Source of the DNA: a virus
Taxonomy: Duplodnaviria > Heunggongvirae > Uroviricota > Caudoviricetes
IMG/VR virus record: IMGVR_UViG_2713896907_000007
Location: 1 to 31,177 of that record
Strand: one strand, 5' to 3'
Length of the DNA: 31,177 nt
Positions 13,901-31,177 of the stretch are shown here, in pieces (within the stretch, counting starts at the first letter, position 1; every line of letters begins with the position of its first letter). A program made the translations under genes and the position numbers. Below the pieces are notes generated by a model. That model did no database searches, was not told the DNA's origin, and saw nothing but the letters and a program-made list of their open reading frames with translations.

Positions 13901-14153
13901 CGTTTTCGTCCTGACAGTGTTTAATCATTTTTACCTGGCTGGCACAGCGTGCCAGCGCGTTCTCAAGCTGCCGGATATCAGCACTTAAATCGCCGTTCGT
14001 CTGCGGGTCACTGCCCGGCATCGGGCAAAGGCTCACTTTCGGGCAGGCGTTGACGACAATCACTGGCGTCGGTGCAGGCCGGGCGCTGGTGCAACCGGCG
14101 CACAGCATCAGGCAGGTCAGCACCGTACCAGCGGCGAAAATCTTCGTTTTCAT
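13863..14153 (-). CDS. lysC: LysC, Rz1-like outer-membrane lipoprotein spanin (96 aa)
   Basis: 96-aa ORF in an alternative frame overlapping the 3' part of lysB and the start of R; signal peptide with lipobox LCAGC followed by a Pro-rich mature part, typical of o-spanins. Confidence 0.8.
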   Translation of the reverse strand: MKTKIFAAGTVLTCLMLCAGCTSARPAPTPVIVVNACPKVSLCPMPGSDPQTNGDLSADIRQLENALARCASQVKMIKHCQDENDAQTRQPAQGAD

Positions 14154-14433: not shown

Positions 14434-14846
14434 GGTTCCCGCCCCTCAAAACGCTGACGGCAGGCCGTACGTATCAGCCGGAAGAACACCGACGCCACGA
14501 GGTAAATCAGCGCAGTAAAAATCCACCCGGCAGCGACCAGCGAGATAAACGTCGCCACCATCACCACCAGAGCCGCTGCCCGCCTGCGCCACGGCACCGG
14601 CTGCAAAAACAGCGACGTGACAATCTTCACGGCCAGCGATTCCGGCGGCAGCTCCCGCCCGTAGCGTTCCAGCACATACTCAGTGGCATACACCCCGACA
14701 CCACCGGCAACCACACAGATAACCGTCTCCAGAATCGCCCAGGCGGCGACAAAACTGACGGCCACGCTCTGCGGGTAAATCAGGGACAGTGCCAGCATCA
14801 GCGCCAGCGACACGTTCAGCATCAGTGAAAGGGATAATTTCTTCAT
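14421..14846 (-). CDS. lysA: LysA, membrane protein affecting lysis timing (141 aa)
   Basis: 141-aa ORF with several hydrophobic helices, between K and lysB as in P2. Confidence 0.85.
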   Translation of the reverse strand: MKKLSLSLMLNVSLALMLALSLIYPQSVAVSFVAAWAILETVICVVAGGVGVYATEYVLERYGRELPPESLAVKIVTSLFLQPVPWRRRAAALVVMVATFISLVAAGWIFTALIYLVASVFFRLIRTACRQRFEGREPCQS

Positions 14847-14860
14847 GGTGTTTACTCCGT

Positions 14861-15358
14861 TTAAGCCGGTACGCCGCCAGCGGTACGCCAGACGGTGACC
14901 AGTTTTTCCAGTGAATGCTCACGCTGACCGTAACCGGCACCCGGCAGGGACGCCCAGATATTGCGACAGCGTGAAATGGCGCGCTCAATGCGTCCCGCCC
15001 GGATGTCATCCAGTGCACCGCGTTCGCGGATCAACTGAATGGCGAGCCTGTCCTGTGACAACGGACTGAAATCCGGCAGGGCAAGCTGTTTGCGGTAGTG
15101 CGGCCAGAACAGGTAAAGCTGCTGATAGCGACCGGAGGCCGTGGATTTTTCACCGCGACGGTTAAACACCTTCGCCGGTCGGCCATGTGCGAACGGGTGG
15201 TCACTGTAGTCGGTGAAAATTTCCGGCTTCCCGTCCAGTCCGGTGACTATCACGTCATAGCCCCGGTTTTTCGTCAGCGGATGATTCGCCGTCCCTTCGG
15301 ACACGGCCAGCATGTCGAGAAAGGCAGCGATATTCTGATGCGTGTTAATTACCGGCAT
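14861..15358 (-). CDS. K: Endolysin K (165 aa)
   Basis: 165-aa ORF; size and position match the P2 K endolysin. Confidence 0.9.
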   Translation of the reverse strand: MPVINTHQNIAAFLDMLAVSEGTANHPLTKNRGYDVIVTGLDGKPEIFTDYSDHPFAHGRPAKVFNRRGEKSTASGRYQQLYLFWPHYRKQLALPDFSPLSQDRLAIQLIRERGALDDIRAGRIERAISRCRNIWASLPGAGYGQREHSLEKLVTVWRTAGGVPA

Positions 15359-15639
15359 TACTGTTTCCCCCTGCCCTTAAAACGGCGCTGAATGGCAATC
15401 TCAATCACCTGATAACCGGCGATACCCAGCATGGAGCCGATGCCGCACACCGCAGGCAGCGACAGGTCAGGAAACTGCACCAGAACAACACCGGCAACCA
15501 TCGATACAAAACCACCGAGCAACATGCGCCCGATAAACAGACGCGGGGTGATGGGTTCACCACCGGCAAGCACCTTGCCGACAACAATCAGCACCCCAAT
15601 CATGAAAAGCGACAGGACGCTTTTTTCTTCTGCTGTCAT
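15358..15639 (-). CDS. Y: Holin Y (93 aa)
   Basis: 93-aa ORF with hydrophobic transmembrane segments, directly upstream of K. Confidence 0.9.
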   Translation of the reverse strand: MTAEEKSVLSLFMIGVLIVVGKVLAGGEPITPRLFIGRMLLGGFVSMVAGVVLVQFPDLSLPAVCGIGSMLGIAGYQVIEIAIQRRFKGRGKQ

Positions 15640-15642
15640 GCG

Positions 15643-15846
15643 TTACTCCCACAGATTGACAGTTTCAGCCACGGGCGCGGTCTGAACGTCGGGCAGTTCG
15701 ACGGCGGTGCCGTGCGGCAGCACCGCACCCAGTTCAGCCAGTCCCGGATTTGCGGCGAGCACGTTCTCAACCACGCCCTCAGTGCGCCCGTAATACCGGA
15801 CACAAATGGCGTCGAGCGTGTCGCCCTGTAGCGCAAAGGTCTTCAT
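15643..15846 (-). CDS. X: Tail protein X (67 aa)
   Basis: ORF 15643..15915 trimmed to the internal Met giving MKTFALQGDTLDAICVRYYGR... (67 aa), the P2 gpX N-terminus as I recall it; ATG overlaps L stop. Confidence 0.85.
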   Translation of the reverse strand: MKTFALQGDTLDAICVRYYGRTEGVVENVLAANPGLAELGAVLPHGTAVELPDVQTAPVAETVNLWE

Positions 15847-16355
15847 CAGATTTGACTCACGATGCAGCGCGGCTTGTCCTGGATGCGCGCCACTGCCCAG
15901 CGCATATCCCGCCACAGCTCATCAATGGTGCTGTCAATGCTGTCGGCCTTCTTGTCGCCTTTCGCACTGGCATCCACGCCGCGGTAACGCTCATAAAGCG
16001 ACGCGGTCGCCATCGCACACACGGCGCGCTCGTAGTAAAAAACTTTGATGCTTTCACCGTCGATGTCGTCCGCCGGAACGTCCGCCAGACGCGTAAAACC
16101 GGCGGCAATTTTCTGTTCGCGGTACTCGTACAGCTCCGCATTCGTCTCCGCCATGCCTGACTTGATGGCCTCACGCAGACGGGCGGGGGCGACGGTCTGC
16201 TCAAGGCGCATACGTTCCCGGACGCGCTTCGGGTCGATATCGGGAAAAAAGAACGTGTTTTTAATCACCGGCTCGTCGCCTGCCGGTTGCGGGATGGCCA
16301 CCGTACCCTCACCGGACACGGGAGCCTCCTTTCGCGGAATAATCAGCGTCATCAT
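15846..16355 (-). CDS. L: Head completion protein L (169 aa)
   Basis: ORF 15846..16415 trimmed to MMTLIIPRKEAP..., giving 169 aa like P2 gpL; SD GAGGT 5 nt upstream of the ATG at 16355. Confidence 0.88.
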   Translation of the reverse strand: MMTLIIPRKEAPVSGEGTVAIPQPAGDEPVIKNTFFFPDIDPKRVRERMRLEQTVAPARLREAIKSGMAETNAELYEYREQKIAAGFTRLADVPADDIDGESIKVFYYERAVCAMATASLYERYRGVDASAKGDKKADSIDSTIDELWRDMRWAVARIQDKPRCIVSQI

Positions 16356-16454
16356 GACTACCTCTAAAAAGTCGGGCGGTGGACGCCGGTACAGCGTCAG
16401 GTGATTCACCCTCACTGACCGGCGTGCCGCCCTGGCGCGGGGCGCATTCGGTTG

Positions 16455-17198
16455 TTAACTGGCTTTCTTTTTCTGGCGTCCACGTTTTGCCGGTGTCACG
16501 CTCCGGGTCTTACGCGGGGTACGGGTGGCCGCTTTGGGCTGCGGCTCCGGCTTCGGTTTCAGCTCCCGCTCCAGTCGTTCAATCTCTTTTTTGACGCCTG
16601 CCTGACAGTCGAGCCGTGTCGCACGTTGCAGGTGAGCCAGCGCACCGGCGGCATCACCACCGTCACGCAGAAACAGACCGGTGATTTTGTGCAGCTTTGC
16701 GCGCACTTCATCAGGCATGTCAGCCGTGGCGGTCAGTTCAAGGGTCTCCGTCAGCAGGCGGGTATCCACAGACTCACCGGCAGCGTGGGCACGCATGGCC
16801 GCAAGCGCCACCTCCTCGGTGAACATGTACGGCGGGGTGCGGCGGTGTTTACCTGGCATGGTCAGACCGTACTTCAGGGCATAACGGGCAATCTCCAGCG
16901 CACCGGCAATATCGCCGGTATCCAGACGCCACAGCATGACCGTCATCAGAATGTCATCCTGTGCACCTTTGCCCTGCTCCAGCACGCCGTTCACCCACGG
17001 CAACCAGAACGGCAGCAGTTCGCGCTTTTTCGCGGCCTTCAGCTCTTTTGAATAAATCGCTTTCAGTGTGCGCTGGTCTGCGGCGAGCTTAACCAGCATC
17101 TGCTCATAGACAGTTGCATGTCGCAGCGGGGCGGCTTCCCGCTGCGCGGTCATTGCTGCCGAGACCCGCATCATGTGGCGCTGTGCGGGACTCGTCAT
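16455..17198 (-). CDS. M: Terminase small subunit M (247 aa)
   Basis: 247-aa ORF; size and synteny match P2 gpM. Confidence 0.9.
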   Translation of the reverse strand: MTSPAQRHMMRVSAAMTAQREAAPLRHATVYEQMLVKLAADQRTLKAIYSKELKAAKKRELLPFWLPWVNGVLEQGKGAQDDILMTVMLWRLDTGDIAGALEIARYALKYGLTMPGKHRRTPPYMFTEEVALAAMRAHAAGESVDTRLLTETLELTATADMPDEVRAKLHKITGLFLRDGGDAAGALAHLQRATRLDCQAGVKKEIERLERELKPKPEPQPKAATRTPRKTRSVTPAKRGRQKKKAS

Positions 17199-17201
17199 CG
17201 G

Positions 17202-18275
17202 TTACGCTCCCGGCTCTGCGGTCGCTTTAGCCGGTGTGGAGAAATCACCGACCTTAATTTTTTCCACCAGACAACCGGCGGCGTAGTCTTCCACCACGTA
17301 ATCAATGTTCATTGACTCGTAGTTCTCCACGCGGTCGAGTTTCGGGTTTTCCACAATCACGCGGCGATGGCTGTCATCCATGTAGTAGATGGACAGGTTT
17401 TCCAGCTTCGTGATGAGCATCGCATCCGCCGGGAAGTACGGGACGCGTACCGCTGGCAGGTTACCGATGCGTTTCTGGCTGATGATGACGTCAGCGGCCA
17501 GCATTTCGCTGTTGTCCTGCTCCTTGTTAACGATGGGGAAATACTTGTCCGCCAGTAACTGACGCCCCACAATCACCACAAGGTCAGGGTCTTCCTGATA
17601 CCACGGCTCAATCAGGTTGTTGGTCGCATCCATCACCAGTGCATCAAGGCTGGCATAATCACCGCCCTTACCCACGCGGATAACCTCAGAGGTGGTGCGG
17701 CCTTCCTCGTCAGTGACCTTACTCATCACGCGCGCCGGGGCTTCATTGCGGTATTTCTGCAGCCAGCCGACCGCCACATCCTGCAGCATCGGGTTACTGC
17801 TGCGGTCAGAGGTTTCGGCACGCTTCACACCGTTAAAACCGGCCATGATTAAATCAAGAGCCTGACGTTTGATAATGGCGTTACGGACACGGAGCTGGAA
17901 ATCCTGATAACGCGCCCACAGGTCAAGCGTTTTGTAGCGGATATAAAAATCGAAGTTAATCTGGTCGCATTCGTACTTGTTTGACGCCAGCTTCGAAAAA
18001 TCCTTCGGCTGACGCTCGGTGCCACCGGCGGTGTCGGTGGTGCTGGCAATGGAGCCGGTGACACCGATGCCAATTTTTTCCCCTTTCATTTCGCTGACCG
18101 GCACAATATTGATGCGGGTCAGAAAATCAGAGGACTCCTGCATGGTGTTCATCAGGGTCTGGGTGACCGACGGTTCAACGGTGAATTTTTTCGACACATC
18201 ACCGGCGTCGATGCCGTTCAGTTCGGCAACACGGGACAGGTAGGCATTAAATTTAAAGCGGGTTTCCTGGCGCAT
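17202..18275 (-). CDS. N: Major capsid protein N (357 aa)
   Basis: 357-aa ORF; size and synteny match P2 gpN. Confidence 0.92.
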   Translation of the reverse strand: MRQETRFKFNAYLSRVAELNGIDAGDVSKKFTVEPSVTQTLMNTMQESSDFLTRINIVPVSEMKGEKIGIGVTGSIASTTDTAGGTERQPKDFSKLASNKYECDQINFDFYIRYKTLDLWARYQDFQLRVRNAIIKRQALDLIMAGFNGVKRAETSDRSSNPMLQDVAVGWLQKYRNEAPARVMSKVTDEEGRTTSEVIRVGKGGDYASLDALVMDATNNLIEPWYQEDPDLVVIVGRQLLADKYFPIVNKEQDNSEMLAADVIISQKRIGNLPAVRVPYFPADAMLITKLENLSIYYMDDSHRRVIVENPKLDRVENYESMNIDYVVEDYAAGCLVEKIKVGDFSTPAKATAEPGA

Positions 18276-18333
18276 AGTTTTTCCTGAAATTAAGGGTTAA
18301 TCGTGAAGGTTTTCCCGGACTGACTGACGCCGG

Positions 18334-19188
18334 TCAGCAGTTCGTCATCAGGGCGTCACCGCCACCACCGGTGGCCTTGCTGCGGCGCTGCTGGGTCAGA
18401 CTTTCGGTGTGGTCGAGACTGTTTTTCAGGCGGGTGAATGCCTGGCTGGTTTCATCCACCTTGTCAGTCACCTCCTGCTTAAGTGCGGAAAAGGCGGTTT
18501 CCACCTCAGCGAGGCGCTGCTCAGTGGCGCTCAGTTTTTCCTGCACATGTTCAGCAACAGCGGTCACCGCTTCATGCACGTCATTCAGACGGGCGTCATC
18601 GCTGGCCTGTTTGCGGCCAAAAATGGATTTCACCTTTTCGGTCAGGGCGGTGAACACGGTTTCAGGCAGGTCTTCAAATTCCAGCTCAACAGGCGTTGCC
18701 ACTGAAATCAGGTTTTCAGGGCTTAATTTGAAGCGGTTCAGGGGGTTGTGTTTTGCCGTGCGGCAGAATTCCAGGTATTCCGTGCCGAGGCTTGCCGGGT
18801 CATCGGTGACGGCCAGACCCACCAGATAACATTTGCCGGTGTTGGCAAAGTTCGGCTGAATTTCCATTGAGGTGTAGACCTTCTGCGCGGCCTTGTTCAT
18901 CGCGATAAGGTCATCGGTCGGGGTGATTTTCGCAAACAGCGCCCATTTGCCTTTCAGCGCCGAATCATCGTCAATCTTTTCGGCCTTCAGCTCGGCCACA
19001 TCGCCATAACGCTTAAAAATGCCGTCAGGCAGGATGCCGCGCAGATGTTCCAGGTTAATGCGGCAACCATAGACTCGCGGGTCAAAGGTTTCGGCCATTT
19101 CCTGAATATCCTGCGCACTGATGACACGCCCGTCACAGGTGTCACCCTCAACGCCGATACGAAAGAATTTTGAGACTTTTTTTGCCAT
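18334..19188 (-). CDS. O: Capsid scaffolding protein O (284 aa)
   Basis: ORF 18334..19254 trimmed to internal Met MAKKVSKFFRIGVEGDTCDGR..., giving 284 aa like P2 gpO. Confidence 0.88.
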   Translation of the reverse strand: MAKKVSKFFRIGVEGDTCDGRVISAQDIQEMAETFDPRVYGCRINLEHLRGILPDGIFKRYGDVAELKAEKIDDDSALKGKWALFAKITPTDDLIAMNKAAQKVYTSMEIQPNFANTGKCYLVGLAVTDDPASLGTEYLEFCRTAKHNPLNRFKLSPENLISVATPVELEFEDLPETVFTALTEKVKSIFGRKQASDDARLNDVHEAVTAVAEHVQEKLSATEQRLAEVETAFSALKQEVTDKVDETSQAFTRLKNSLDHTESLTQQRRSKATGGGGDALMTNC

Positions 19189-19361
19189 TGTCAGGAGTCC
19201 TGAATAGTGATTAGAGGAGTCACATGTCGGCATCAGTTTCCCGACGATGCGCATCCTCCGCCATCAGTCCCGGATGGCTTATCACTGACACAACAGCACC
19301 TTAGCGAATCGCAGGGCGCGACTCAGTAGCCTTGCCGTGTATTCATCACGGCGAGGTATTC
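19189..19361. promoter_or_regulatory. Divergent O/P intergenic region, presumed Ogr-dependent late promoters
   Basis: 173-bp gap between divergently transcribed O (minus) and P (plus). P2 has divergent late promoters here. Contains imperfect dyads (TGTCGG-N10-CCGACG at about 19225..19246 and GCCGTG-N7-CACGGC at 19334..19352), but I found no exact TGT-N12-ACA. Confidence 0.4.
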
Positions 19362-21134
19362 ATGACCATCACCACAGACACCACTCTTTTACACGACCCG
19401 CGTCGTCAGGCGGCGCTGCTGTACTGGCAGGGGTTTTCCGTGCCGCAGATTGCCGCCATGTTGCAGATGAAACGCCCGACGGTGCAGAGCTGGAAACAGC
19501 GCGACGGCTGGGACAGCGTTGCCCCCATCAGCCGTGTCGAAATGAGTCTGGAAGCGCGACTGACCCAGCTCATCATCAAACCGCAGAAAACCGGTGGTGA
19601 CTTCAAGGAAATTGACCTGCTCGGACGCCAGATTGAACGACTGGCACGGGTAAACCGCTACAGTCAGACCGGCAACGAGGCAGACCTTAATCCGAACGTC
19701 GCTAACCGCAACAAAGGCGGGCGTCGCAAACCGAAAAAGAATTTTTTCAGTGACGAGGCCATCGAAAAGCTGGAGCAGATTTTCTTTGAGCAGTCTTTCG
19801 ACTATCAGTTGCACTGGTATCGCGCCGGGCTTGAGCACCGCATCCGCGATATCCTGAAATCCCGCCAGATTGGCGCGACGTTTTATTTTTCCCGCGAGGC
19901 GCTGCTGCGTGCCCTGAAAACCGGTCATAACCAGATTTTTCTGTCGGCCAGTAAAACGCAGGCGTATGTGTTCCGCGAATACATCATCGCCTTTGCCCGT
20001 CTGGTTGACGTTGACCTGACCGGTGACCCGATTGTCCTGGGCAATAACGGCGCAAAACTGATTTTTCTCGGCACCAACTCCAACACCGCGCAGAGTCATA
20101 ACGGCGACCTGTACGTCGATGAGATTTTCTGGATCCCGAATTTTCAGGTACTGCGTAAGGTGGCATCAGGTATGGCCTCACAGAGTCACCTGCGCTCGAC
20201 CTATTTCTCCACCCCGTCCACGCTGGCGCACGACGCCTACCCGTTCTGGTCGGGTGAACTGTTTAACCGGGGACGCGCCAGCGCCGCCGAACGCGTGGAA
20301 ATCGACGTCAGTCATAACGCCCTTGCCGGTGGGCTTCTCTGTGCGGACGGCCAGTGGCGACAGATTGTCACCATTGAGGACGCCCTGAAAGGCGGCTGCA
20401 CGCTGTTCGACATTGAGCAGCTCAAACGCGAAAACAGCGCCGACGATTTTAAAAACCTGTTCATGTGTGAATTTGTTGACGACAAGGCATCGGTGTTCCC
20501 GTTCGAGGAGCTGCAACGCTGCATGGTCGACACGCTGGAAGAATGGGAAGACTATGCGCCGTTTGCCGCCAATCCGTTCGGCTCCCGCCCGGTATGGATT
20601 GGTTACGACCCGTCACACCGTGGCGACAGCGCCGGATGCGTGGTACTGGCACCGCCGGTGGTGGCCGGTGGCAAATTCAGAATACTTGAGCGTCACCAGT
20701 GGAAAGGCATGGACTTTGCCACCCAGGCGGAATCCATCCGCAAACTCACCGAAAAATACAACGTCGAATACATCGGTATTGATGCCACCGGCCTCGGTGT
20801 CGGCGTGTTCCAGCTCGTGCGCTCGTTCTATCCCGCCGCGCGTGATATCCGCTACACGCCGGAAATGAAAACCGCAATGGTGCTCAAGGCAAAAGACGTT
20901 ATCCGCCGTGGCTGTCTGGAATACGACGTCAGCGCCACCGACATCACCAGCTCGTTTATGGCTATCCGCAAGACCATGACCAGCAGCGGACGCAGCGCCA
21001 CCTATGAGGCCAGCCGCAGCGAGGAAGCCAGCCACGCCGACCTCGCCTGGGCGACCATGCACGCCCTGTTAAATGAGCCACTCACCGCCGGTATCAGCAC
21101 CCCGCTGACATCCACCATTCTGGAGTTTTACTGA
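19362..21134 (+). CDS. P: Terminase large subunit P (590 aa)
   Basis: ORF 19332..21134 begins at a TTG; the ATG at 19362 (MTITTDTTLLHDPRRQ...) is preceded by GAGGT and gives about 590 aa like P2 gpP. Confidence 0.9.
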   Translation: MTITTDTTLLHDPRRQAALLYWQGFSVPQIAAMLQMKRPTVQSWKQRDGWDSVAPISRVEMSLEARLTQLIIKPQKTGGDFKEIDLLGRQIERLARVNRYSQTGNEADLNPNVANRNKGGRRKPKKNFFSDEAIEKLEQIFFEQSFDYQLHWYRAGLEHRIRDILKSRQIGATFYFSREALLRALKTGHNQIFLSASKTQAYVFREYIIAFARLVDVDLTGDPIVLGNNGAKLIFLGTNSNTAQSHNGDLYVDEIFWIPNFQVLRKVASGMASQSHLRSTYFSTPSTLAHDAYPFWSGELFNRGRASAAERVEIDVSHNALAGGLLCADGQWRQIVTIEDALKGGCTLFDIEQLKRENSADDFKNLFMCEFVDDKASVFPFEELQRCMVDTLEEWEDYAPFAANPFGSRPVWIGYDPSHRGDSAGCVVLAPPVVAGGKFRILERHQWKGMDFATQAESIRKLTEKYNVEYIGIDATGLGVGVFQLVRSFYPAARDIRYTPEMKTAMVLKAKDVIRRGCLEYDVSATDITSSFMAIRKTMTSSGRSATYEASRSEEASHADLAWATMHALLNEPLTAGISTPLTSTILEFY

Positions 21135-22168
21135 TGAGCAAGAAAAAAGGGAAAACACCGCAACCTGCGGCAAAAAAAATGACCGCCAGCGCCCCGAAAA
21201 TGGAGGCATTCACCTTTGGTGAGCCGGTGCCGGTGCTCGACCGCCGTGACATTCTGGATTACGTCGAATGTATCAGTAACGGCAGATGGTATGAGCCGCC
21301 GGTCAGCTTTACCGGTCTGGCAAAAAGCCTGCGTGCTGCCGTACATCACAGCTCACCGATTTACGTCAAACGTAATATTCTGGCTTCAACGTTTATCCCG
21401 CACCCGTGGCTGTCCCAGCAGGATTTCAGCCGCTTTGTGCTGGATTTTCTGGTGTTCGGTAATGCGTTTCTGGAAAAGCGTTACAGCACCACCGGCAAGG
21501 TCATCAGACTGGAAACCTCACCGGCAAAATATACCCGCCGTGGTGTGGAAGAGGATGTTTACTGGTGGGTGCCGTCCTTCAACGAGCCGACAGCCTTCGC
21601 GCCCGGTTCCGTGTTTCACCTGCTGGAGCCGGATATTAATCAGGAGCTGTACGGCCTGCCGGAATATCTCAGCGCCCTTAACTCTGCCTGGCTGAATGAG
21701 TCAGCCACGCTGTTCCGCCGCAAGTATTACGAAAACGGCGCGCATGCCGGATACATCATGTACGTCACCGATGCCGTGCAGGACCGCAACGATATCGAAA
21801 TGCTTCGCGAAAACATGGTGAAGTCGAAAGGCCGCAATAACTTTAAAAACCTGTTTCTCTATGCCCCACAGGGGAAAGCCGACGGCATTAAAATTATCCC
21901 GCTCAGTGAAGTGGCGACGAAGGACGATTTTTTTAATATCAAAAAAGCCAGCGCCGCTGACCTGCTGGATGCGCACCGCATCCCCTTTCAGTTGATGGGC
22001 GGCAAGCCAGAGAACGTCGGGTCGCTGGGTGATATTGAGAAAGTGGCAAAGGTCTTTGTCCGCAATGAGCTTATCCCGTTACAGGACAGGATTCGGGAAA
22101 TAAACGGCTGGCTCGGTCAGGAGGTCATCCGCTTTAAAAACTACTCACTGGACACTGACAACGGCTGA
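21134..22168 (+). CDS. Q: Portal protein Q (344 aa)
   Basis: 344-aa ORF whose start overlaps the P stop; size and position next to cos match P2 gpQ. Confidence 0.92.
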   Translation: MSKKKGKTPQPAAKKMTASAPKMEAFTFGEPVPVLDRRDILDYVECISNGRWYEPPVSFTGLAKSLRAAVHHSSPIYVKRNILASTFIPHPWLSQQDFSRFVLDFLVFGNAFLEKRYSTTGKVIRLETSPAKYTRRGVEEDVYWWVPSFNEPTAFAPGSVFHLLEPDINQELYGLPEYLSALNSAWLNESATLFRRKYYENGAHAGYIMYVTDAVQDRNDIEMLRENMVKSKGRNNFKNLFLYAPQGKADGIKIIPLSEVATKDDFFNIKKASAADLLDAHRIPFQLMGGKPENVGSLGDIEKVAKVFVRNELIPLQDRIREINGWLGQEVIRFKNYSLDTDNG

Positions 22169-22173
22169 ACATC

Positions 22174-22195
22174 GCCGCCTGCGGGCGGCTTTTTT
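22174..22195 (+). terminator. Intrinsic terminator after Q
   Basis: GCCGCC-tgcg-GGCGGC hairpin (22174..22189) followed by TTTTTT (22190..22195), 6 nt after the Q stop. Confidence 0.7.
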
Positions 22196-22337
22196 ACACC
22201 CCGTCAGCACGCCCTCACACGCTCACCTCCGCGCAAAACACCCCGCAGACAAACCAACACCCCGGCACACAATCTAAACGCCATCACGACGCGCTCAAAC
22301 GCTGAAAAAATAAAATCAGCACCACTGCCAGCGCGCA

Positions 22338-22356
22338 GTGCTTTCCCCGCCTCGCC
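22338..22356. other. cos: cos cohesive-end site (19 nt)
   Basis: GTGCTTTCCCCGCCTCGCC is the exact reverse complement of GGCGAGGCGGGGAAAGCAC, which I recall as the P2 19-nt cohesive end; it lies about 170 bp past the Q stop in a C/A-rich tract, as in P2. Confidence 0.75.
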
Positions 22357-22512
22357 CGCCCGCTTCATGGGGCGGTTTTAATGCAGTTGCAATACCGCTT
22401 TTGAGCCACGCCAGTCTTGGCGGACGCACGGCCAGAACATGTAACTCCGGCACATGCAAAACCATGCACATATTGCATGCACAGATAAAAACGGGGATAT
22501 CACAGAAAAAGC

Positions 22513-22543
22513 ACAAAAAAAACCGGCATTCATGATGCCGGTT
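22513..22543 (-). terminator. Intrinsic terminator for leftward transcripts leaving the cargo island (possibly bidirectional)
   Basis: 9-bp stem AACCGGCAT/ATGCCGGTT (22521..22529 and 22535..22543) with 5-nt loop; on the minus strand it is followed by a run of eight T (complement of 22515..22522). Confidence 0.65.
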
Positions 22544-22681
22544 CTGATCAATTTTTATAGTTGTCACTGGCCGCGCAATGCACCAATCACACTGTTGAGG
22601 CACGTACTGACAACAATTAGCAGAAAAATCGTTGTCCACGGACTTTCATAAATGTGAGATAACTTCTTGATATAGATCATT

Positions 22682-22813
22682 TTATTTATTCATTCTGATG
22701 TGATTTAACAGGTATTTTATAACGACCATAAGCTCATCTTTACTGGCTTGTTCAACCATTTTTTCAGTGTAACTGTCCACCTCGCGAGAGCTCAGGTCGT
22801 TATTTAAGGCCAT
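22682..22813 (-). CDS. Small hypothetical protein (43 aa from the SD-preceded Met; ORF could extend to 22963)
   Basis: ORF 22682..22963 overlaps the start of the opposite-strand ORF at 22875; the internal Met at 22813 has an AGAGG SD about 9 nt upstream. Start is uncertain and the protein may not be real. Confidence 0.3.
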   Translation of the reverse strand: MALNNDLSSREVDSYTEKMVEQASKDELMVVIKYLLNHIRMNK

Positions 22814-22874
22814 TACAGTTAGCCTCTTTGCCCAGTCGGCATAAGGGTCTTTAATTGATGAAAGGGAACTATGC

Positions 22875-23312
22875 ATGTCCAAAAATCTCGAATTATTCAA
22901 CCAACAGACGGCAGAAATCTTTGCGGTGCTATGGGATAACTTTCCTGTACCACAAGTCATCACCTACAAAAAATTTAACGCCGCGTTACCTGATGACTAC
23001 TTTGACCAACTTAACTCACCAGAAATGAAAGCACTGAATCAGTTGCGTAGTGTGGTTGATGGCACATTCACTTTCCTAAGCGAAAACGGCTATATTCTGT
23101 ACGGAACAGACCATCAGACCGGTTTTCATGATGTGCGCCTGACCGAGAAAGCACTCGCGGTGCTCAACAAAAAACCCGAAGCACTTGGCGGTAATGAAAC
23201 GATGGGTGATAAAATTATCAGTGCAGTAAAAGACGGAACTCCAGGTGTAATTGCTGGAGCAGTGACAAACCTGTTGACTCTTGGCGTTAATTTTGTGACG
23301 TCAGCTTCATAG
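22875..23312 (+). CDS. Hypothetical 145-aa protein with hydrophobic Gly/Ala-rich C-terminal segment; unknown cargo gene
   Basis: ORF in the cos-A cargo island, convergent with the RT operon; C-terminus DGTPGVIAGAVTNLLTLGVNFV looks like a membrane helix. No recognisable catalytic motif. Confidence 0.5.
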   Translation: MSKNLELFNQQTAEIFAVLWDNFPVPQVITYKKFNAALPDDYFDQLNSPEMKALNQLRSVVDGTFTFLSENGYILYGTDHQTGFHDVRLTEKALAVLNKKPEALGGNETMGDKIISAVKDGTPGVIAGAVTNLLTLGVNFVTSAS

Positions 23313-23338
23313 CTAACTACTTTCTGAGGTTTCTAATC

Positions 23339-23381
23339 AACGCCGCCTGCATCGAAAGTAAATTCCTGCACTTGCGGCGTT
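23339..23381. terminator. Hairpin between convergent genes, possible bidirectional terminator
   Basis: 8-bp arms AACGCCGC (23339..23346) and GCGGCGTT (23374..23381) around a 27-nt loop, between the 145-aa ORF stop (23312) and the RT stop (23436). Weak: large loop, no clean T-run. Confidence 0.35.
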
Positions 23382-23435
23382 ACTAACGCCAAGTCATTTT
23401 AATTATTGATGCTTTTATGCAATACATTCAATATG

Positions 23436-24386
23436 TTAATTTGCAGTATTAGCCTTTAAAGTAAGCACCTTCGATTTGTAACGTTGCTCAATCACTCCCA
23501 TTGAATGCAAACGGCCAAAGAGCTTTTTGGCAATGATTGTTTCTCTCGCATTTTCGGCGTCTTTAATTATTTTCCAATAATCTATTTCCCTAGCCATCAA
23601 AAAATGCTGCTCATTCCTAACTTTTAAAGCATTACCGAATACAATAACTCCAGTTACCAACTTAGGCTTATCTCTGGCATATAATTTTGTTTTCGTTGGG
23701 TGTATAACATGTCCATGCTTATTAACGATCTTACGAATTACAGCGCAAAACAATCGATTTACGTTACTACCTGAAAAAGTGAGATCATCAACATAAACAG
23801 TCATGTTAACTCGTAACTTTTGGCAAAGTTGATATATTTCACCAAACATTCTTGAATTTGCAAAATATGCCAACGGCATACTGATGCGACTACCTGTTGG
23901 TAATCGGTCATGACAAGTACATATGTGGGACAAAACATCAGCAACATCAGATGACATTTTCATCACCGAAAAGAAAAAAGAAAATATCATCCCTCTTGTA
24001 GTTGATGGAAAAAAAGCTTTAATATCTGTTGTCATCATCTTTTCATTATTAAGATGAGCTTTAGCATTCGTCACATTAGAGCACTTCTTCTTCCCCGAGT
24101 GCAGATATTCTGGCAAAGCAATCCGTGATAACAAACTTGCAATTCGTGTATGTACAAGTTCTAGTTTTTCTAAAGGCTTTTGTATTTTTCGTGCTTTTCC
24201 TTTTTTAGAAAGTTGCTCAAAAACGGAATAGTTTCCTTCATCTTTTCTCAAAGAGTATAATTCTTCAAGACTAACACAAAGCAAATTCGCCAGTTTTCTT
24301 TTACTTTTGAGTTTGTAAAATGGCGAATCCATTATGTCATAAGATTTATTTTTAGTATTAACCTTAAGCTTTTTCCGTTTTTTCAT
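23436..24386 (-). CDS. Reverse transcriptase, retron-type (316 aa)
   Basis: Motifs seen in translation: NAKAH (NAxxH, aa 107-111), TDIKAFFPS (motif A Asp), LPTGSRISMPLA (motif B region), YVDD (motif C, aa 198-201, DNA 23784..23795) and KLVTGVIV (VTG, aa 244-246). Size and motif order resemble retron RTs such as Ec86 as I recall them. AT-rich. Confidence 0.85.
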   Translation of the reverse strand: MKKRKKLKVNTKNKSYDIMDSPFYKLKSKRKLANLLCVSLEELYSLRKDEGNYSVFEQLSKKGKARKIQKPLEKLELVHTRIASLLSRIALPEYLHSGKKKCSNVTNAKAHLNNEKMMTTDIKAFFPSTTRGMIFSFFFSVMKMSSDVADVLSHICTCHDRLPTGSRISMPLAYFANSRMFGEIYQLCQKLRVNMTVYVDDLTFSGSNVNRLFCAVIRKIVNKHGHVIHPTKTKLYARDKPKLVTGVIVFGNALKVRNEQHFLMAREIDYWKIIKDAENARETIIAKKLFGRLHSMGVIEQRYKSKVLTLKANTAN

Positions 24387-24684
24387 TTTTATTACTTACC
24401 CACTCCAGAACATCCAGAACTTTACCGGCTAAATTTAAACGCAATCGCTTAGACAAACGGCCTTGCGTGCCTAATGATTCCGAAAAGAATACTAAAGAGG
24501 ATACTGGTATGTCGAAATGGGAGGCGTAACGCTCTAAGACTTCAATCGACGGTGACCAAACTCCGCTTTCAAGCGATACTATTTTGTCTTTTGGAATACC
24601 TAAAGATGAAGATAACTCAACTATTGATTCTTTATGGTATTGCCTTATTAAACGAAGGGCTTTATGTAACATAGGCAACTCCAT
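24364..24684 (-). CDS. XRE-family helix-turn-helix protein (106 aa), co-operonic with the RT
   Basis: LRLIRQYHKESIVELSSSLGIPKDKIVSLESG fits a Cro/C1-type HTH; its 3' end overlaps the RT start by 23 nt, implying translational coupling. Confidence 0.75.
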   Translation of the reverse strand: MELPMLHKALRLIRQYHKESIVELSSSLGIPKDKIVSLESGVWSPSIEVLERYASHFDIPVSSLVFFSESLGTQGRLSKRLRLNLAGKVLDVLEWVSNKNEKTEKA

Positions 24685-24708
24685 GCTATTGAAACTAGGG
24701 AGGACGCA

Positions 24709-24864
24709 TTACTCACCACCCCCTTCTAAGTAGTCCAGTGCTCGAGTGACTAAATCAAACAGTCTAATACCCCATTTGAATAATTCCCAAGCATAACCAG
24801 CCCTCTTTTTCAGGTTTGACTTGTTCTGCGCCTGCTGTTCGTTGGTTAATTTATCATTCTTCAT
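24709..24864 (-). CDS. Small hypothetical protein (51 aa) at the head of the HTH-RT operon
   Basis: ATG at 24864 is preceded by a strong SD AAGGAG with a 6-nt spacer; it ends 24 nt before the HTH start. The longer ORF 24709..25122 upstream of this Met runs through hairpin-rich DNA and is probably not coding. Confidence 0.45.
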   Translation of the reverse strand: MKNDKLTNEQQAQNKSNLKKRAGYAWELFKWGIRLFDLVTRALDYLEGGGE

Positions 24865-25100
24865 GATTTGCTCCTTATGCCCATAGTGTGCAAACGGTAT
24901 GTCTGCTCCAACACTATGGTTCGCCCTCATAAGGATGAGATTGAACAGCACTAGCTCCCTGCTCCACGAACCCTTTGTCGCCCAAAGGGTTCGAATTCCC
25001 ATACGCCATACCACCTGGTCCTGTGACTCTTGTCGCTGGCAGGGGCGTTGCGCGGGGTAAACGGTAGAAAGTGTTAACTTTCCACGGGTAAAAAATACCC
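24865..25100 (-). ncRNA. Candidate structured non-coding RNA (possible retron msr/msd) upstream of the RT operon
   Basis: Non-coding stretch with several hairpins: 9-bp stem 24881..24889/24911..24919; 11-bp stem CGAACCCTTTG/CAAAGGGTTCG 24967..24993 with 5-nt loop; 6-bp stem 25067..25082; 5-bp stem 25086..25100. A retron RT needs an adjacent msr/msd RNA. Boundaries and a1/a2 repeats not identified. Confidence 0.25.
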
Positions 25101-25281
25101 AATTGATGGCGATGTATCTCACTAACTAACCAATAATTGCATCATAACAAGTAAACCGTTGTATTTGATCTTTCTATATATAATATTTTTTCATATAAAA
25201 CCAAACATTAACAACAAAGAAGAATAACACATATTAAAGCGATATACGATATACGTTCATTACATTGAATTTTAAAGTGTT
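25101..25281 (-). promoter_or_regulatory. AT-rich intergenic region between A and the RT cassette, presumed cassette promoter
   Basis: About 180 bp of very AT-rich DNA containing a tandem GATATAC GATATAC near 25241..25254; only weak -35/-10 candidates on the minus strand (TTGTTA at 25150..25145). Confidence 0.3.
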
Positions 25282-27570
25282 TTATATGAAAAATGACACG
25301 CCATCTTGAAACCCGAACCACTCATTAGCAACCAGATACGTGAATTTTTTCCCGCCATAATTTACGGTTGCCCCACGCGCCAGCGCCTCAAGCTCCCATC
25401 GCTGCGGCCTGATACCGTTCTGAGCAAGGTCAACGCGGATACGGGTAATTTGCATTCGTTCCGACCGGGTCAGTCTGGCCGATGGTGCCATTTCATACTG
25501 TTTTAACGGGCTTCCGTTTCTCTGCTGACGATTTGGTGTTCTCAGCCCGTGTTTTAATGCGTCCCTGAGCGCCCTCACGACCTCCGGGTCATTCCATTCG
25601 ATAACACCGTCATCAACCAGATTAAGCACTGCTGCGGCGTGCTCAGAAGGTGTGGGAGCCGGTAACGAAGTATCACCACCGGAGAGCTTTCCACAGTTAT
25701 TGACAGGACTCCGAGGCGCGGCGATGCCGCTTTTTAAAGTCAAAGGCTCAACGACCGGCACTTTCGGAACAATGCGCCAGTCCGTCGTTCTGGTGATATG
25801 AATATGACGCGCGCCGAGATGCGGCGCGTAAATGCCGACCACTCTCTCGACTTCTTCCTCGTACTCGTTAACTTCATCCGACGGACTACGGGCGACCCTG
25901 ACAGTCTGACAATCGCGCGGGACATTTGCCCCACCCTGCGCGCTGATATACAGCGCAAAATCGCCACTGTCTGCGGCAGCGCGTGCAGCCTCGACGCGTT
26001 CGTCAAACTCATCAGCAATGCTGACGCCGCGAGGTAATTTGCGTAGTTCACGGTAAGCCCCCATTGTCGGCAGGCCAACCGTTTTAAATTGCGGAATGCG
26101 CCACGTTGACGCCCATGCGGTAACAGCCGCGGCAGTGTCTTTCAGCGGCCTGCCGGTATCGTTATCGAGCTGACCATCCAGTGCATAGCCGTCGATGTTT
26201 TTTGAAATGTATTTCGCGATATACCCCGCAGCACCGCCCCGGTTAAGGTGTTTTGCCTGAAAACGGTTTCGCGCGGCTCCTCTTTCGTCGCCATCCTCTT
26301 TGAGCGCATAGCGACGCATGATTTCGATAATCTGGTTACGCTGGCGCGGATTACAAAAAAGCATCATATGCCAGTGCGGCGTTCCGTCGTGGTGTGGCTC
26401 GACGACACGCAAACCGTAGACCTGTAAATCATTATCCTTGAATGCCGTGCGCATCAGGCTCCAGATACGGCAGAGATAACGCTGCGCATCCTTTGGATTA
26501 AATGCCTCATCGTTCCAGCCGTGATTTAGCTGGACGGTTTTACTTTCGCCTTTTCTGACCTGACGTGTCGGGTGATACTTTGACGGCGCGGTCAGCGTGA
26601 TAAACATCCCCACATCACCCTCTGCTGCGGCGTAACGCTCAATACCAGCAATGGTGTTCATCAGCTCCATCCGGCGAATTTCAGGATTAGAAATACTGCC
26701 CATCACCTTACTGATAAGGTCGATGCGCTCGCCGGTTTCCCTGTTTTCAAGGTCACACGATTTAAGAAATTCCAGATTTGCCTGGCGGCGCGCACGCACA
26801 TCACGAATGGCATGTTTACTGGCATAAGGAGAACGGTCTTTATTGACCTCCCCGACAGCTATCAGTAACGCCTCATGCCAGCGCATACGCTGGCCTTTAA
26901 GCTGATGAGTCCACCACTCATCGTTAAACAGGCGGGCAATGGCAGAATATGCCTGCCTCGTGGTCATCTGTCCTTTACGGTATTTTTTCCAGTAGAGCGG
27001 GGAAATATTGAAAGCACGTGCAGCGCCAGCAACATGACCATAGAGGTGAGCCTGCGCCTCATCCGTAAACAGCGATTCTTTTTCGCCATGTGCATCAACC
27101 CAGGTATCGCAGAGTTCCTCATACATCATGAAAAGCTGCGATGAGATACGGGCAGCAAACTTTTTCAGCTCCTTGTCATTCATTCCCGGCAGGCGCGCAT
27201 AGTGGTCACGCTCTGCCAGAAACAGCAACGACGCGTCGGTGTTCATTTCATGGCGCTGATTCACACGCTCAATGCGCGGCCATAAACGACGCTGAAAAGT
27301 GGATGTGAGGAAATAAAACCCGTGCACCGGGCTTTTATTGCGCCGGATGTAGTCATAACGTGAAGTAAACAGCGAGCGCAAAAAGTAAGGCAGGCGGTTA
27401 ATCGTGGATAAAACACCTTGCACCTGACGCATCTCGTCACGTGTAAGGGGTCTTTCGCGCCCGACAGCCTCGCGTGGCGCGTTCCATGCATAAGCACCGG
27501 TAAACGTCTTACCGGTGCCTGCGGCAAATGCTGACGGAGGGACAAAACGCCCGGAGGCTTTAACGGCCAT
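25282..27570 (-). CDS. A: Replication initiation protein A (rolling-circle endonuclease, about 762 aa)
   Basis: ORF 25282..27612 trimmed to MAVKASGRFVPPSAFAAGTGKTF..., which avoids overlap with the upstream gene and gives a length close to P2 gpA (761 aa). Confidence 0.9.
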   Translation of the reverse strand: MAVKASGRFVPPSAFAAGTGKTFTGAYAWNAPREAVGRERPLTRDEMRQVQGVLSTINRLPYFLRSLFTSRYDYIRRNKSPVHGFYFLTSTFQRRLWPRIERVNQRHEMNTDASLLFLAERDHYARLPGMNDKELKKFAARISSQLFMMYEELCDTWVDAHGEKESLFTDEAQAHLYGHVAGAARAFNISPLYWKKYRKGQMTTRQAYSAIARLFNDEWWTHQLKGQRMRWHEALLIAVGEVNKDRSPYASKHAIRDVRARRQANLEFLKSCDLENRETGERIDLISKVMGSISNPEIRRMELMNTIAGIERYAAAEGDVGMFITLTAPSKYHPTRQVRKGESKTVQLNHGWNDEAFNPKDAQRYLCRIWSLMRTAFKDNDLQVYGLRVVEPHHDGTPHWHMMLFCNPRQRNQIIEIMRRYALKEDGDERGAARNRFQAKHLNRGGAAGYIAKYISKNIDGYALDGQLDNDTGRPLKDTAAAVTAWASTWRIPQFKTVGLPTMGAYRELRKLPRGVSIADEFDERVEAARAAADSGDFALYISAQGGANVPRDCQTVRVARSPSDEVNEYEEEVERVVGIYAPHLGARHIHITRTTDWRIVPKVPVVEPLTLKSGIAAPRSPVNNCGKLSGGDTSLPAPTPSEHAAAVLNLVDDGVIEWNDPEVVRALRDALKHGLRTPNRQQRNGSPLKQYEMAPSARLTRSERMQITRIRVDLAQNGIRPQRWELEALARGATVNYGGKKFTYLVANEWFGFQDGVSFFI

Positions 27571-29323: not shown

Positions 29324-29695
29324 TTAAGCCGCACGGCCATGTCTTGATTTGCTGTAACTAATGCGATTTTTCCAGTCATGCCATTCTGTCGGAGCTTCAT
29401 CAACTAGCTGGGCTGCGTACTTGTCCCACTCACGGCGATTAATCCATAATTCAGCTTTCCCTCTTGGTTTTAATGGGTCTGTCATGTAGAAGGCTGGCAG
29501 CTTTCCTGCTTTAGCCATTTCAGCCACCGCGCGTGGTGTCTTACCGATGTAAAGAGCAAAACCTTCTTTCGACAGCAAATCAGATGGGCGCTCTGAAATC
29601 TGAATGCTTTTACGTTTGGCTTCATTTTCGAAACTTGCCTCATCGCTAGTTGGACAAGAAATTTCTACATTTGTCGTCACTTTGCTATCCTCCAT
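29324..29695 (-). CDS. cox: Cox-like excisionase/transcriptional regulator (up to 123 aa)
   Basis: Core FALYIGKTPRAVAEMAKAGKLPAFYMTDP resembles the P2 Cox HTH region (..IGKSTGAVRRMIDKGKLPVIDMTDP) as I recall it; first gene of the leftward early operon, divergent from C. N-terminus about 29 aa longer than P2 Cox, so the true start may lie downstream (a GTG at codon 6 follows GGAGGA). Confidence 0.75.
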   Translation of the reverse strand: MEDSKVTTNVEISCPTSDEASFENEAKRKSIQISERPSDLLSKEGFALYIGKTPRAVAEMAKAGKLPAFYMTDPLKPRGKAELWINRREWDKYAAQLVDEAPTEWHDWKNRISYSKSRHGRAA

Positions 29696-29788
29696 AAGAT
29701 TTGCGATTCACCAACTGGAGCCATCTAGAGCCTTTTTGAGCAAATCACAAATTGCCAAGTAACAATATAATTGGAGATTAGCAAAATT
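29696..29788. promoter_or_regulatory. Lysis-lysogeny switch region (divergent Pe/Pc promoters and operators, inferred)
   Basis: 93-bp gap between divergent cox and C; in P2 this holds the face-to-face promoters and the C operators. Imperfect direct repeats GATTCACC (29705..29712) and AATCACAA (29743..29750) noted but not verified as operators. Confidence 0.45.
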
Positions 29789-30088
29789 ATGTCAAGTGAA
29801 CAAAGTGAGAAACTAAAGCTCATCCGTGAATCTGAACGCCTTAAAACTAAGGAACTTGCTGAATTAATTGGAATTAATTACTACACATATCATGGATATG
29901 AATCAGGAAAATCAAAAATGCCTATGGAAGCAGGTATGAAGCTGTTTAAGCATCCACGCTTTCGCAAGTATCGTGACTGGTTCATGTTTGATGAAACAGA
30001 TCCAGCAGCTGGACAAATAGCCCCGGCTCTCGCACACATTGGGCAAGACTCAACAACCTTGCACCACTCAGACCAGAAGACTGGCTGA
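29789..30088 (+). CDS. C: Immunity repressor C (99 aa)
   Basis: ORF 29771..30088 begins at a TTG; the ATG at 29789 gives 99 aa, and the C-terminus ...GQIAPALAHIGQDSTTLHHSDQKTG closely resembles the P2 C repressor as I recall it. Confidence 0.85.
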   Translation: MSSEQSEKLKLIRESERLKTKELAELIGINYYTYHGYESGKSKMPMEAGMKLFKHPRFRKYRDWFMFDETDPAAGQIAPALAHIGQDSTTLHHSDQKTG

Positions 30089-30181
30089 CGATTTATTCAG
30101 CATATGTGTGTAGTAAATGTACGAAAGAAAATTGCATTAATTTTCAAGTAGTAGAAGTAAACAGCGTCATCGGAGGGCTTT

Positions 30182-31177
30182 ATGTCTATTAAAAAGCTCG
30201 ATGATGGTCGTTATGAAGTGGACGTCAGACCGCAGGGTGCAGATGGAAAACGTATCAGGCGGAAATTTAAAACTAAAGGTGAAGCTCAAGCATTCGAACG
30301 TCATGTACTGGTTAACTACCACAACAAAGAGTGGTTGGAGAAACCAGCCGACCGCCGAACTCTTACAGAGTTGTTAGGCAGATGGTGGATATATCACGGA
30401 AAATCACATGAGCGTGGAGATATTGAACGGGGGCGTTTAACGACAATAATCGCCAAATTTGCAGAAATGGGAGTGTCCAGAGCTGACCAGCTAACAAAGA
30501 AAACGATAACTGATTATCGCGTTGTAATGATGAACGATGGTCTGAAACCAGCCAGCGTAAATCGACATCTGGCAATAATGAGCGGGATGTTCACCAAGTT
30601 AATTGACGCCGGTGAATACCACTCTCACAACCCGTTCCGTGAGATTAAACGGTTACGTGAAGCTGTTACGGAAATGGCTTTTTTGTCCAGTGAAGAGATT
30701 ACGCGGCTGTTATCCATGCTTGATGGTGATGAATTAAATGCAACTCTGGTCTGCCTTTCTACTGGTGGACGCTGGAGTGAAGTGTCTAATTTAAAAGCTG
30801 AACACATCATTAACCAGATGGTTACGTTTATGAAAACTAAAAACGGAAAACGCAGGACAATTCCCGTTTCGCAGGACCTGATTAAACGGATCAAGACCAA
30901 AAATTCAGGCAGGCTTTTTAATGCCAGTTACTACAAAGTGCGTAACGCTCTCAGGGAAGTAAAACCCGATTTACCTGACGGACAAGCAGTACATGTTTTG
31001 AGGCATACATTTGCCACACATTTTATAATGAATGGAGGTAACATAATCACATTGCAGCGCATCCTGGGTCATTCTAACATTCAGCAAACTATGACCTACG
31101 CACACTTTGCACCGGATTTCTTACAAGATGCTGTGACTCTTAACCCGGTGTCAGGAATGTCCATAATGCGTCCATAA
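30182..31177 (+). CDS. int: Tyrosine integrase (331 aa)
   Basis: MSIKKLDDGRYEVDVRPQGADGKRIRRKF... N-terminus and C-terminal catalytic region HVLRHTFATHFIMNGGNIITLQRILGHSNIQQTMTYAHF (R..H..R/H..Y) resemble the P2 integrase; stop codon is the last 3 bases of the window. Confidence 0.92.
   Translation: MSIKKLDDGRYEVDVRPQGADGKRIRRKFKTKGEAQAFERHVLVNYHNKEWLEKPADRRTLTELLGRWWIYHGKSHERGDIERGRLTTIIAKFAEMGVSRADQLTKKTITDYRVVMMNDGLKPASVNRHLAIMSGMFTKLIDAGEYHSHNPFREIKRLREAVTEMAFLSSEEITRLLSMLDGDELNATLVCLSTGGRWSEVSNLKAEHIINQMVTFMKTKNGKRRTIPVSQDLIKRIKTKNSGRLFNASYYKVRNALREVKPDLPDGQAVHVLRHTFATHFIMNGGNIITLQRILGHSNIQQTMTYAHFAPDFLQDAVTLNPVSGMSIMRP

Follow-up and report, generated by a model that had tools for sequence, protein, structure and literature searches.

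A predicted type VI retron and an unrelated gene pair in the gpA-gpQ hotspot of a P2-like prophage

Contents and modular make-up of the cos-A island

We analysed the locus between cos and the replication gene A in IMG/VR record IMGVR_UViG_2713896907_000007, a 31,177-nucleotide (nt) stretch of viral DNA (hereafter the window) that represents a nearly complete P2-like prophage in reversed orientation relative to the P2 map. Its structural and replication genes are 96-97.5% identical to those of P2 (blastn against NC_001895), and between cos and A lies a non-homologous island of 2922 bp (22386-25307) that stands in place of P2 30296-33545, the segment of orf91, tin and old. We consider it very likely that this island is cargo of the gpA-gpQ hotspot, made up of a type VI retron and an unrelated, independently shuffled module. 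The main features of the island are given below (reverse transcriptase, RT; helix-turn-helix, HTH; small protein, SP; amino acids, aa).

23436..24386, minus strand: predicted type VI retron RT, 316 aa (PADLOC RT_VI; Pfam RVT_1; motifs NAKAH at 107, YVDD at 198 and VTG at 244)
24364..24684, minus strand: Cro/C1-type HTH protein (PADLOC HTH_VI, 7.7e-31; weak Pfam HTH_3/19/31)
24709..24864, minus strand: SP, 51 aa, predicted toxic effector (phrog_15287, 8e-34 in PHROGs; annotated in records of a Klebsiella phage and, by the Prokaryotic Genome Annotation Pipeline (PGAP), of Escherichia coli)
24686..25160, minus strand: putative hybrid RNA (hyRNA), composed of a non-coding 5' part (~24865-25160) and the SP coding region, its ends inferred
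25161..25281, minus strand: AT-rich spacer from gene A to the retron RNA, presumed site of the retron promoter; cross-lineage conservation begins near 25165
22682..22876, minus strand: 64-aa gene, phrog_2454 (PHROGs, 1.1e-38; PGAP WP_024168670 in a 99.6%-identical locus)
22875..23312, plus strand: 145-aa gene, phrog_2266, a PHROGs family of unknown function
22519..22545, minus strand: terminator-like hairpin with an 11-bp stem and a T-run, downstream of the 64-aa gene and pointing to cos

We refer to 22400-23435, with the leftward terminator-like hairpin and the 64-aa and 145-aa genes, as module A, and to 23436-25307, read from the minus strand, as module B. A first-pass annotation of the sequence had noted an RT cassette, a convergent 145-aa open reading frame (ORF) and a small divergent ORF, all of which are found at the locus; the leftward terminator it had reported beside cos does exist as a hairpin with a T-run, but at 22545-22519 and not at 22513-22543. 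What it missed is that the RT cassette reads as a type VI retron with a putative small-protein toxin gene embedded in structured RNA, and that two independently moving modules are joined exactly at the RT stop codon.

This joint emerges from a comparison of relatives that were collected by an RT search of viral contigs (a search of genome contigs gave two distant loci only, since the single-protein patterns used were too specific). In P2-like contigs with this retron lineage the retron always lies ~420 bp after gene A, and the DNA from the RT stop codon to cos takes three unrelated forms, namely the 145/64-aa pair of the window, a stretch of ~1.8 kb (with a 454-aa ORF in P22H1) and one of ~1.1 kb. 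Homology to the window begins at 23436, the RT stop codon, in P22H1 and in contig L023, and at 23446 in L029, these three sharing the retron and gene A while carrying different cos-proximal cargo.

The 145-aa family, for its part, is found in many places without the retron: in a Kluyvera-like P2 prophage and a Citrobacter 186-like remnant, in P4-like islands of Klebsiella aerogenes directly upstream of an SMC_N/AAA_13 ATPase, near an Ogr/Delta gene, adjoining a small terminase gene, in the Q-lysis accessory slot of a lambdoid prophage, and beside an AAA_21-RloB pair. Taken together, the sharp break at the RT stop codon and the occurrence of the 145-aa gene elsewhere without a retron indicate that the island consists of two modules.

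The alternative that the whole 2.9-kb island is one system, with the 145-aa and 64-aa genes serving as sensor, regulator or second effector of the retron, is in our view improbable. It can draw on the fact that the 145-aa gene adjoins this retron lineage in E. coli, in O157:H7, in Klebsiella and in several IMG/VR contigs, and that the corresponding accession WP_000042038 co-occurs with RVT_1 in many rows of Table S5A of Rousset et al. 2022 (PMC9122126). On the other hand, the same retron (RT 81-82% and adjoining gene A 96-97% identical) is accompanied by two other, unrelated cos-proximal cargoes (contigs L001, L023-L028 and L029-L032), the switch of cargo occurs precisely at the RT stop codon, the 145-aa family turns up without the retron in P2-, 186- and P4-like as well as lambdoid contexts, and the type VI retrons characterised so far need only RNA, SP, HTH and RT (10.1101/2025.10.22.683967; 10.64898/2026.04.27.721009). 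On sequence homology, then, module A is not part of the retron, and the two modules are shuffled independently of one another.

The two genes of module A diverge from start codons that share 2 nt. We regard both as real genes because they are conserved in length, belong to PHROG families and show third-position-biased substitution (21/14/41 by codon position for the 64-aa gene and 11/5/56 for the 145-aa gene). The 145-aa protein had no match in Pfam, PADLOC or NCBIfam, and remote members of its family searched against Pfam gave none above threshold; a profile search assembled 669 clusters (at 50% identity) of proteins of similar length. In its best AlphaFold model (89.7 on the pLDDT scale, the predicted local distance difference test; the other four models 46-68) an N-terminal winged-helix domain is followed by two hydrophobic helices at the C-terminus. 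This predicted helical hairpin is possibly membrane-inserting, and the last helix (GVIAGAVTNLLTLGVNFVT) has a mean Kyte-Doolittle value of 1.52, borderline for a membrane helix. Although speculative, module A could work on its own as an accessory system of phages and serve, for instance, in superinfection exclusion, defence or counter-defence.

Retron proteins and the structured RNA

Module B is, as read from its sequence, a complete type VI retron that comprises a structured RNA, SP, HTH and RT (class as defined by Mestre et al. 2020; retron VI in PADLOC). The RT matches the PADLOC RT_VI profile over positions 1-278 of 279 (1.4e-105, 350.5 bits), ahead by ~200 bits of the second-best profile, RT_III-A (3.4e-45, 152 bits), and all 25 PADLOC matches listed for it (37 families matched) are retron RT models. 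The motifs NAxxH and VTG, both present, are signatures of retron RTs.

Upstream of the RT lies the HTH gene, which encodes 106 aa if read from 24684 and 102 aa if read from the ATG at 24672, the latter start being preceded by a GGAG ribosome-binding site, and which overlaps the RT start by 23 nt. The SP ORF, 24 nt upstream of the HTH ORF, has its ribosome-binding site AAGGAG at 24871-24876; its length is constant across six lineages, and the protein is predicted to form one long helix (pLDDT 78). The SP-HTH-RT order and the HTH/RT overlap are kept in P2-like phages of E. coli and Klebsiella, in Acinetobacter and in a Yersinia P2-like phage. The Acinetobacter type VI locus, whose RT is 46% identical, has a weakly similar 54-aa ORF at the SP position (pairwise E = 4e-5), and the Yersinia phage likewise has a 54-aa ORF there. 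Type VI retron RTs are carried by other phages as well. We rejected as a non-gene a 137-aa extension of SP (24709-25122), the N-terminal part of which is unconserved, overlaps the structured RNA and is unannotated in relatives.

The minus strand from 25150 to 24686 folds at -156 kcal/mol, with a minimum free energy z-score of -4.15 against dinucleotide shuffles. We aligned this RNA over 12 sequences (11 of them distinct, from about six lineages, 77-92% identical) taken from IMG/VR P2-like contigs, P22H1 and a Klebsiella phage, and found higher conservation in the non-coding part than in the 3' half of the SP gene. The RNAalifold consensus on the 12 sequences has 143 pairs, for which 98.2% of cells are standard pairs, as against 37-43% when the partners are slid by 1-3 columns. 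Compensatory double changes occur at 10 pairs (0-4 in the slid controls), and the covariation score is 0.099 (0.02-0.035 in the slid controls). The predicted elements, all on the minus strand, are as follows.

25134-25065, minus strand: three 5' hairpins
25059-24996, minus strand: long stem with an apex of variable sequence and length (three sequences carry an 18-nt insertion), the leading candidate for a template stem
24993-24967, minus strand: invariant 11-bp hairpin
24966-24959 and 24910-24903, minus strand: 8-nt direct repeat UGGAGCAG
24966-24955 with 24702-24690, minus strand: 12-bp long-range pairing that brackets the SP gene and stops just short of the HTH ribosome-binding site
24935-24928 with 24879-24872, minus strand: predicted invariant 8-bp helix, UCCUUAUG with CAUAAGGA, that buries the SP Shine-Dalgarno sequence
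24919-24881, minus strand: hairpin immediately 5' of the SP ribosome-binding site, with two covarying pairs

The three codon positions of SP have similar numbers of substitutions (9/6/8, 8/7/10 and 11/9/12), unlike in the neighbouring genes, and helices within the SP coding sequence carry compensatory changes, which together suggest that the SP coding sequence is also under constraint from RNA structure. Single-sequence folds of the Yersinia-phage and Acinetobacter type VI loci likewise have the ribosome-binding-site region paired and a segment after the stop codon that pairs to a site ~250 nt upstream.

The retron promoter probably lies in the spacer between gene A and the RNA, because this spacer is AT-rich and conservation starts there; a consensus promoter scan of the minus strand from 25100 to 25281 found none. 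In the same region a perfect 15-nt AT-rich inverted repeat (25187-25201 and 25279-25293, with 77 nt between the arms) spans the gene A stop codon. Close relatives retain this repeat with minor changes, distant ones do not. We considered it as a junction signal and set this aside, the repeat being AT-rich and restricted to close relatives; a role as a signal for processing or termination between A and the retron is conceivable.

It is most unlikely that the RT is instead an abortive infection (Abi)-type or defence-associated (DRT) enzyme, such as Abi-P2, that acts without an RNA of the kind that templates msDNA (multicopy single-stranded DNA). A functional RT gene at this P2 locus goes back to Odegrip 2006, as related by Rousset et al. 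2022 (PMC9122126), phage pro147 has a 514-aa non-retron-like RT at the locus, and type VI retrons are often without detectable msDNA (10.1101/2025.10.22.683967; 10.64898/2026.04.27.721009), all of which would fit such an enzyme. Against this stand the match to RT_VI as best profile, at 350 bits over its full length, the retron identity of 25 of 25 listed matches, a length of 316 aa without a C-terminal extension, the NAxxH and VTG motifs, and the joint presence of an HTH_VI partner, SP and a conserved structured RNA.

Hotspot exchange, boundaries and the published record

The backbone features that flank the island are these.

21134..22168, plus strand: gpQ portal gene (Pfam Phage_portal, 3.3e-14; 97.5% identical to P2)
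22174-22189: terminator tQ, after gpQ (terminator scan and P2 annotation)
22338..22356: cos, a 19-nt cohesive end, the reverse complement of GGCGAGGCGGGGAAAGCAC (19/19 match to P2; overlaps both P2 map ends in blastn; P2 cosL/cosR annotation)
22357..22399: conserved cos-flanking stretch and left junction zone, in which P2-like phages with other cargo cease to match (at 22385-22399)
25282..27570, minus strand: gene A, replication nickase (Pfam Phage_GPA, 6e-123; 97% identical to P2 from 25308 on), 762 aa from an ATG at 27570, with its stop codon at 25282-25284

A 107-aa ORF across cos (22316-22639) was discarded as a non-gene, given that its N-terminal part is unconserved, that it overlaps cos and that it is unannotated in relatives.

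By blastn, window 12986-22356 corresponds to P2 9369-1 (97.5% identity), 22338-22385 to P2 33593-33546 and 25308-29327 to P2 30295-26277 (97.0% identity). The cos-side homology stops at 22385, and the A-side homology restarts at 25308, 26 nt within the 3' end of gene A. The claim of the first-pass annotation that the cos-A accessory locus is entirely exchanged relative to P2 was borne out, there being no P2 homology in 22386-25307; the limits it gave, 22357-25281, lie within ~30 bp of these exact ones at each end. Its description of Q, cos and A as intact holds for the portal gene, its terminator, cos and gene A, except that the last ~8 codons of A fall within the exchanged segment, and this extension of the exchange into the 3' end of A had been overlooked.

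Eight different cargoes are found in eight P2-like phages that share 95-99% identity with the window in the flanks at Q and A: orf91/tin/old; DUF4209; cdtABC; paraMORC3 and Dcm; an Ec48 retron with a second RT; DUF4238; and two other retron-VI combinations. Such diversity on near-identical flanks argues that the exchange at a defence hotspot suggested in the first-pass annotation is the right reading. Breakpoint mapping against P2 and P2-like relatives gave narrow junctions on both sides. The left junctions in the eight phages fall at 22385-22399, which is 29-43 bp past cos. On the right, seven of the eight have theirs at 25307-25323, within the final 8-14 codons of A, and the remaining one at 25437. 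From this clustering we conclude that the boundaries of the cargo are fixed and narrow, and that gpA ends in a C-terminal tail that differs between cargoes; the part of A within the right junction zone (25282-25323, its final 8-14 codons) does vary in this way.

Base composition also sets the island apart, with a GC content of 0.391 against 0.53 in the remaining window and a third-position GC content of 0.29 in the RT gene against 0.55-0.71 for gpA, gpQ, gpP and gpO (gpP 0.71). We give next to no credence to the idea that the island genes are highly diverged tin, old and orf91, or else a vertically inherited core: the only point found in its favour is that they share the position of tin and old, whereas P2 Orf91, Tin and Old searched by tblastn against the whole window gave chance-level matches only (best E = 0.14, none colinear), no AAA, TOPRIM or DUF3850 domain was found among the island ORFs (Pfam, PADLOC), the RT, HTH and winged-helix families are unrelated to the ATPase-TOPRIM of Old, and a core is refuted by a GC content 14 points under the backbone and by eight cargoes on near-identical backbones. 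The first-pass annotation, which had seen no resemblance to tin or old in any of the ORFs, was therefore right on this point as well.

What the island shares with P2 orf91/tin/old is its position, its low GC content, a presumed non-essential role in lysogenic conversion and a presumed anti-phage function; P2 Old is, in addition, linked to RecBCD status, as are type VI retrons. They differ in that there is no sequence or domain similarity and the number of genes is not the same, and in that P2 old and tin read from cos to A while the retron here reads from A to cos.

Of 5426 complete E. coli genomes, 29 contain 80% or more of the island, 10 of these 29 at an identity of at least 99.5%. Parts of it occur in 179 of the genomes, and O157:H7 has a variant that is 94.8% identical.

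Both the exchange at this hotspot, a textbook site of defence genes, and the present retron cargo are already known and catalogued. Rousset et al. 2022 described the gpA-gpQ hotspot from 18,150 E. coli loci, among which they counted 1,650 arrangements, and attributed the first notice of its variability to Odegrip 2006 (PMC9122126). Their Table S5A lists WP_001762320 + WP_001762321 + WP_000042038 + WP_001310277, which are the SP, RT, 145-aa and HTH proteins of a 99.6%-identical E. coli locus, and entry #26 of Table S5B ('Type-VI retron', 132 loci) prints an HTH sequence identical to residues 5-106 of the window HTH; the RT printed with it is the representative of a broad cluster and only 25% identical to the window RT. 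The portion of the supplement searched did not contain the sequences of the 145-aa protein, the 64-aa protein or SP, and a literature search for the island accessions gave no main-text matches. In the portions of that work covered here, SP and the RNA are unannotated, the 145/64-aa module is not separated from the retron, and the system was not tested experimentally (PMC9122126). Since hotspot and cargo have been published, a fact that the first-pass annotation did not mention, the observation of the exchange adds little.

Several further sites of variation were seen in the window and its relatives. Additional cargo lies between the portal terminator and cos in pro147 (an Ec48-type retron; L040 1297-3578) and in E. 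coli EF7-18-58 (two hypothetical genes; L005 454-2228), which suggests a further insertion point at about window 22093-22329. Yersinia phage vB_YenM_56.17 carries its type VI retron (54-aa SP, HTH and an RT 47% identical; L046 1974-3394) at the orf30 locus of P2, flanked by the tail genes S and V; this type of retron thus occupies different P2 hotspots. The orf30 locus is empty in the window, where 64 bp (12922-12985) replace P2 9370-10307. The Z/fun locus, a second P2 hotspot, is also exchanged (6809-8015, no P2 homology, GC 0.33-0.41) and holds an ORF (6894-8000, plus strand) whose product, a DUF3800 protein of 368 aa, is matched at 4.5e-106 by PDC-S51, a candidate defence family in PADLOC. 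Finally, the immunity/integrase end of the window (29328-31177) is 66-70% identical to P2 or unalignable, which points to an immunity or integration specificity unlike that of P2.

Comparison with characterised type VI retrons and a proposed mechanism

In Retron-Vpa2 and Retron-Eco12 the SP toxin gene lies within a structured 'hybrid' RNA that also holds the RT template, and is followed by HTH and RT (10.1101/2025.10.22.683967); Retron-Sen3, a type VI retron of the cl2075 lineage described by Garcia-Rodriguez et al., has the same architecture (10.64898/2026.04.27.721009). Both the hyRNA of Vpa2 and the extended transcript of Sen3 are reported to have a helix over the SP Shine-Dalgarno sequence and a long-range repeat on either side of SP (10.1101/2025.10.22.683967; 10.64898/2026.04.27.721009). 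RT-dependent single-stranded DNA (ssDNA), toxicity of SP, and defence triggered by recombination or RecBCD-inhibiting functions of phages have been reported for Vpa2, Eco12 and Sen3 only (10.1101/2025.10.22.683967; 10.64898/2026.04.27.721009).

Our locus resembles Vpa2 and Eco12 in the order of structured RNA, SP, HTH and RT, in a predicted RNA of ~470 nt that has the ribosome-binding site and start codon of SP in stems and a 3' end pairing back to the msr-msd arm, and in a short conserved direct repeat (UGGAGCAG here) that occurs once near the template arm and once next to the ribosome-binding-site helix. The SP of Vpa2 has 55 aa against 51 aa here, both proteins being small and helical with an aromatic/hydrophobic C-terminal half. 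Eco12 comes from E. coli, and our locus, likened to it by description and not by sequence, may or may not be Eco12. The location in the hotspot of a P2-like prophage is a difference, as this context is not discussed in the Vpa2/Eco12 study (10.1101/2025.10.22.683967). According to the proposal of Zhang et al., a conserved 7-nt repeat lets the cDNA open the riboregulator (10.1101/2025.10.22.683967); that the UGGAGCAG repeat recalls this element is something we infer by analogy only.

By analogy with these systems, the retron's own promoter region would drive a hybrid RNA of ~470 nt that contains both the RT template and the SP coding sequence, and SP would be the toxic effector, as it is in the two characterised type VI retrons. 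In the uninfected lysogen SP would be silenced through burial of its ribosome-binding site in an RNA helix, and HTH, complexed with RT and RNA, would restrain SP as an antitoxin or repressor. An infecting phage that expresses recombination or RecBCD-inhibiting functions (of the lambda Red/Gam kind) would be the trigger and might alter the level or state of the RT-made ssDNA, or the balance of HTH and SP. SP would then act and arrest the cell before the phage spreads, resulting in abortive infection.

Two variants of this scheme can be told apart. In the variant known from Vpa2 and Eco12, accumulation of msDNA would derepress translation of SP, and in that known from Sen3 ssDNA would be constitutive and SP controlled post-translationally through HTH and SP. 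We lean slightly to the Vpa2/Eco12 regime because of the short SP, which is like that of Vpa2, the direct repeat and the E. coli origin of Eco12; the Sen3 regime seems to us possible and clearly the less probable of the two.

Several points weigh against our interpretation of module B and of its action. The alignment used for covariation holds only about six independent lineages, and the structure was derived from that same alignment. A scan of 22100-25400 against Rfam at E <= 1 found no retron RNA family, the lone match being a sub-threshold one to STnc240 (27 bits against a gathering threshold of 55, E = 0.41) driven mainly by the 22519-22545 hairpin and its T-run; Rfam has no type VI retron model (10.64898/2026.04.27.721009). 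The hyRNA ends, its promoter and the template stem are presumed or candidate positions. At 79 aa, the SP of Sen3 includes 25 additional N-terminal residues that have no counterpart in the 51-aa SP, and the kinship of our SP to those of Vpa2, Eco12 and Sen3 rests on descriptions and not on sequences. For this copy msDNA, SP toxicity and phage defence are taken from the literature on other retrons, the two published mechanisms disagree, and the step from trigger to toxin is uncertain.

With the island read as hotspot cargo composed of a type VI retron and an independent module A, the locus is a clean, annotated natural type VI retron in an E. coli prophage, and might provide a native-host model for the two competing mechanisms, which were put forward in preprints of 2025-2026. 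It also indicates that the cargo of the hotspot is in turn built from modules, which meet sharply at the RT stop codon. Lastly, the 145-aa family would represent a widespread group of unannotated small winged-helix proteins that travel in phage accessory slots.

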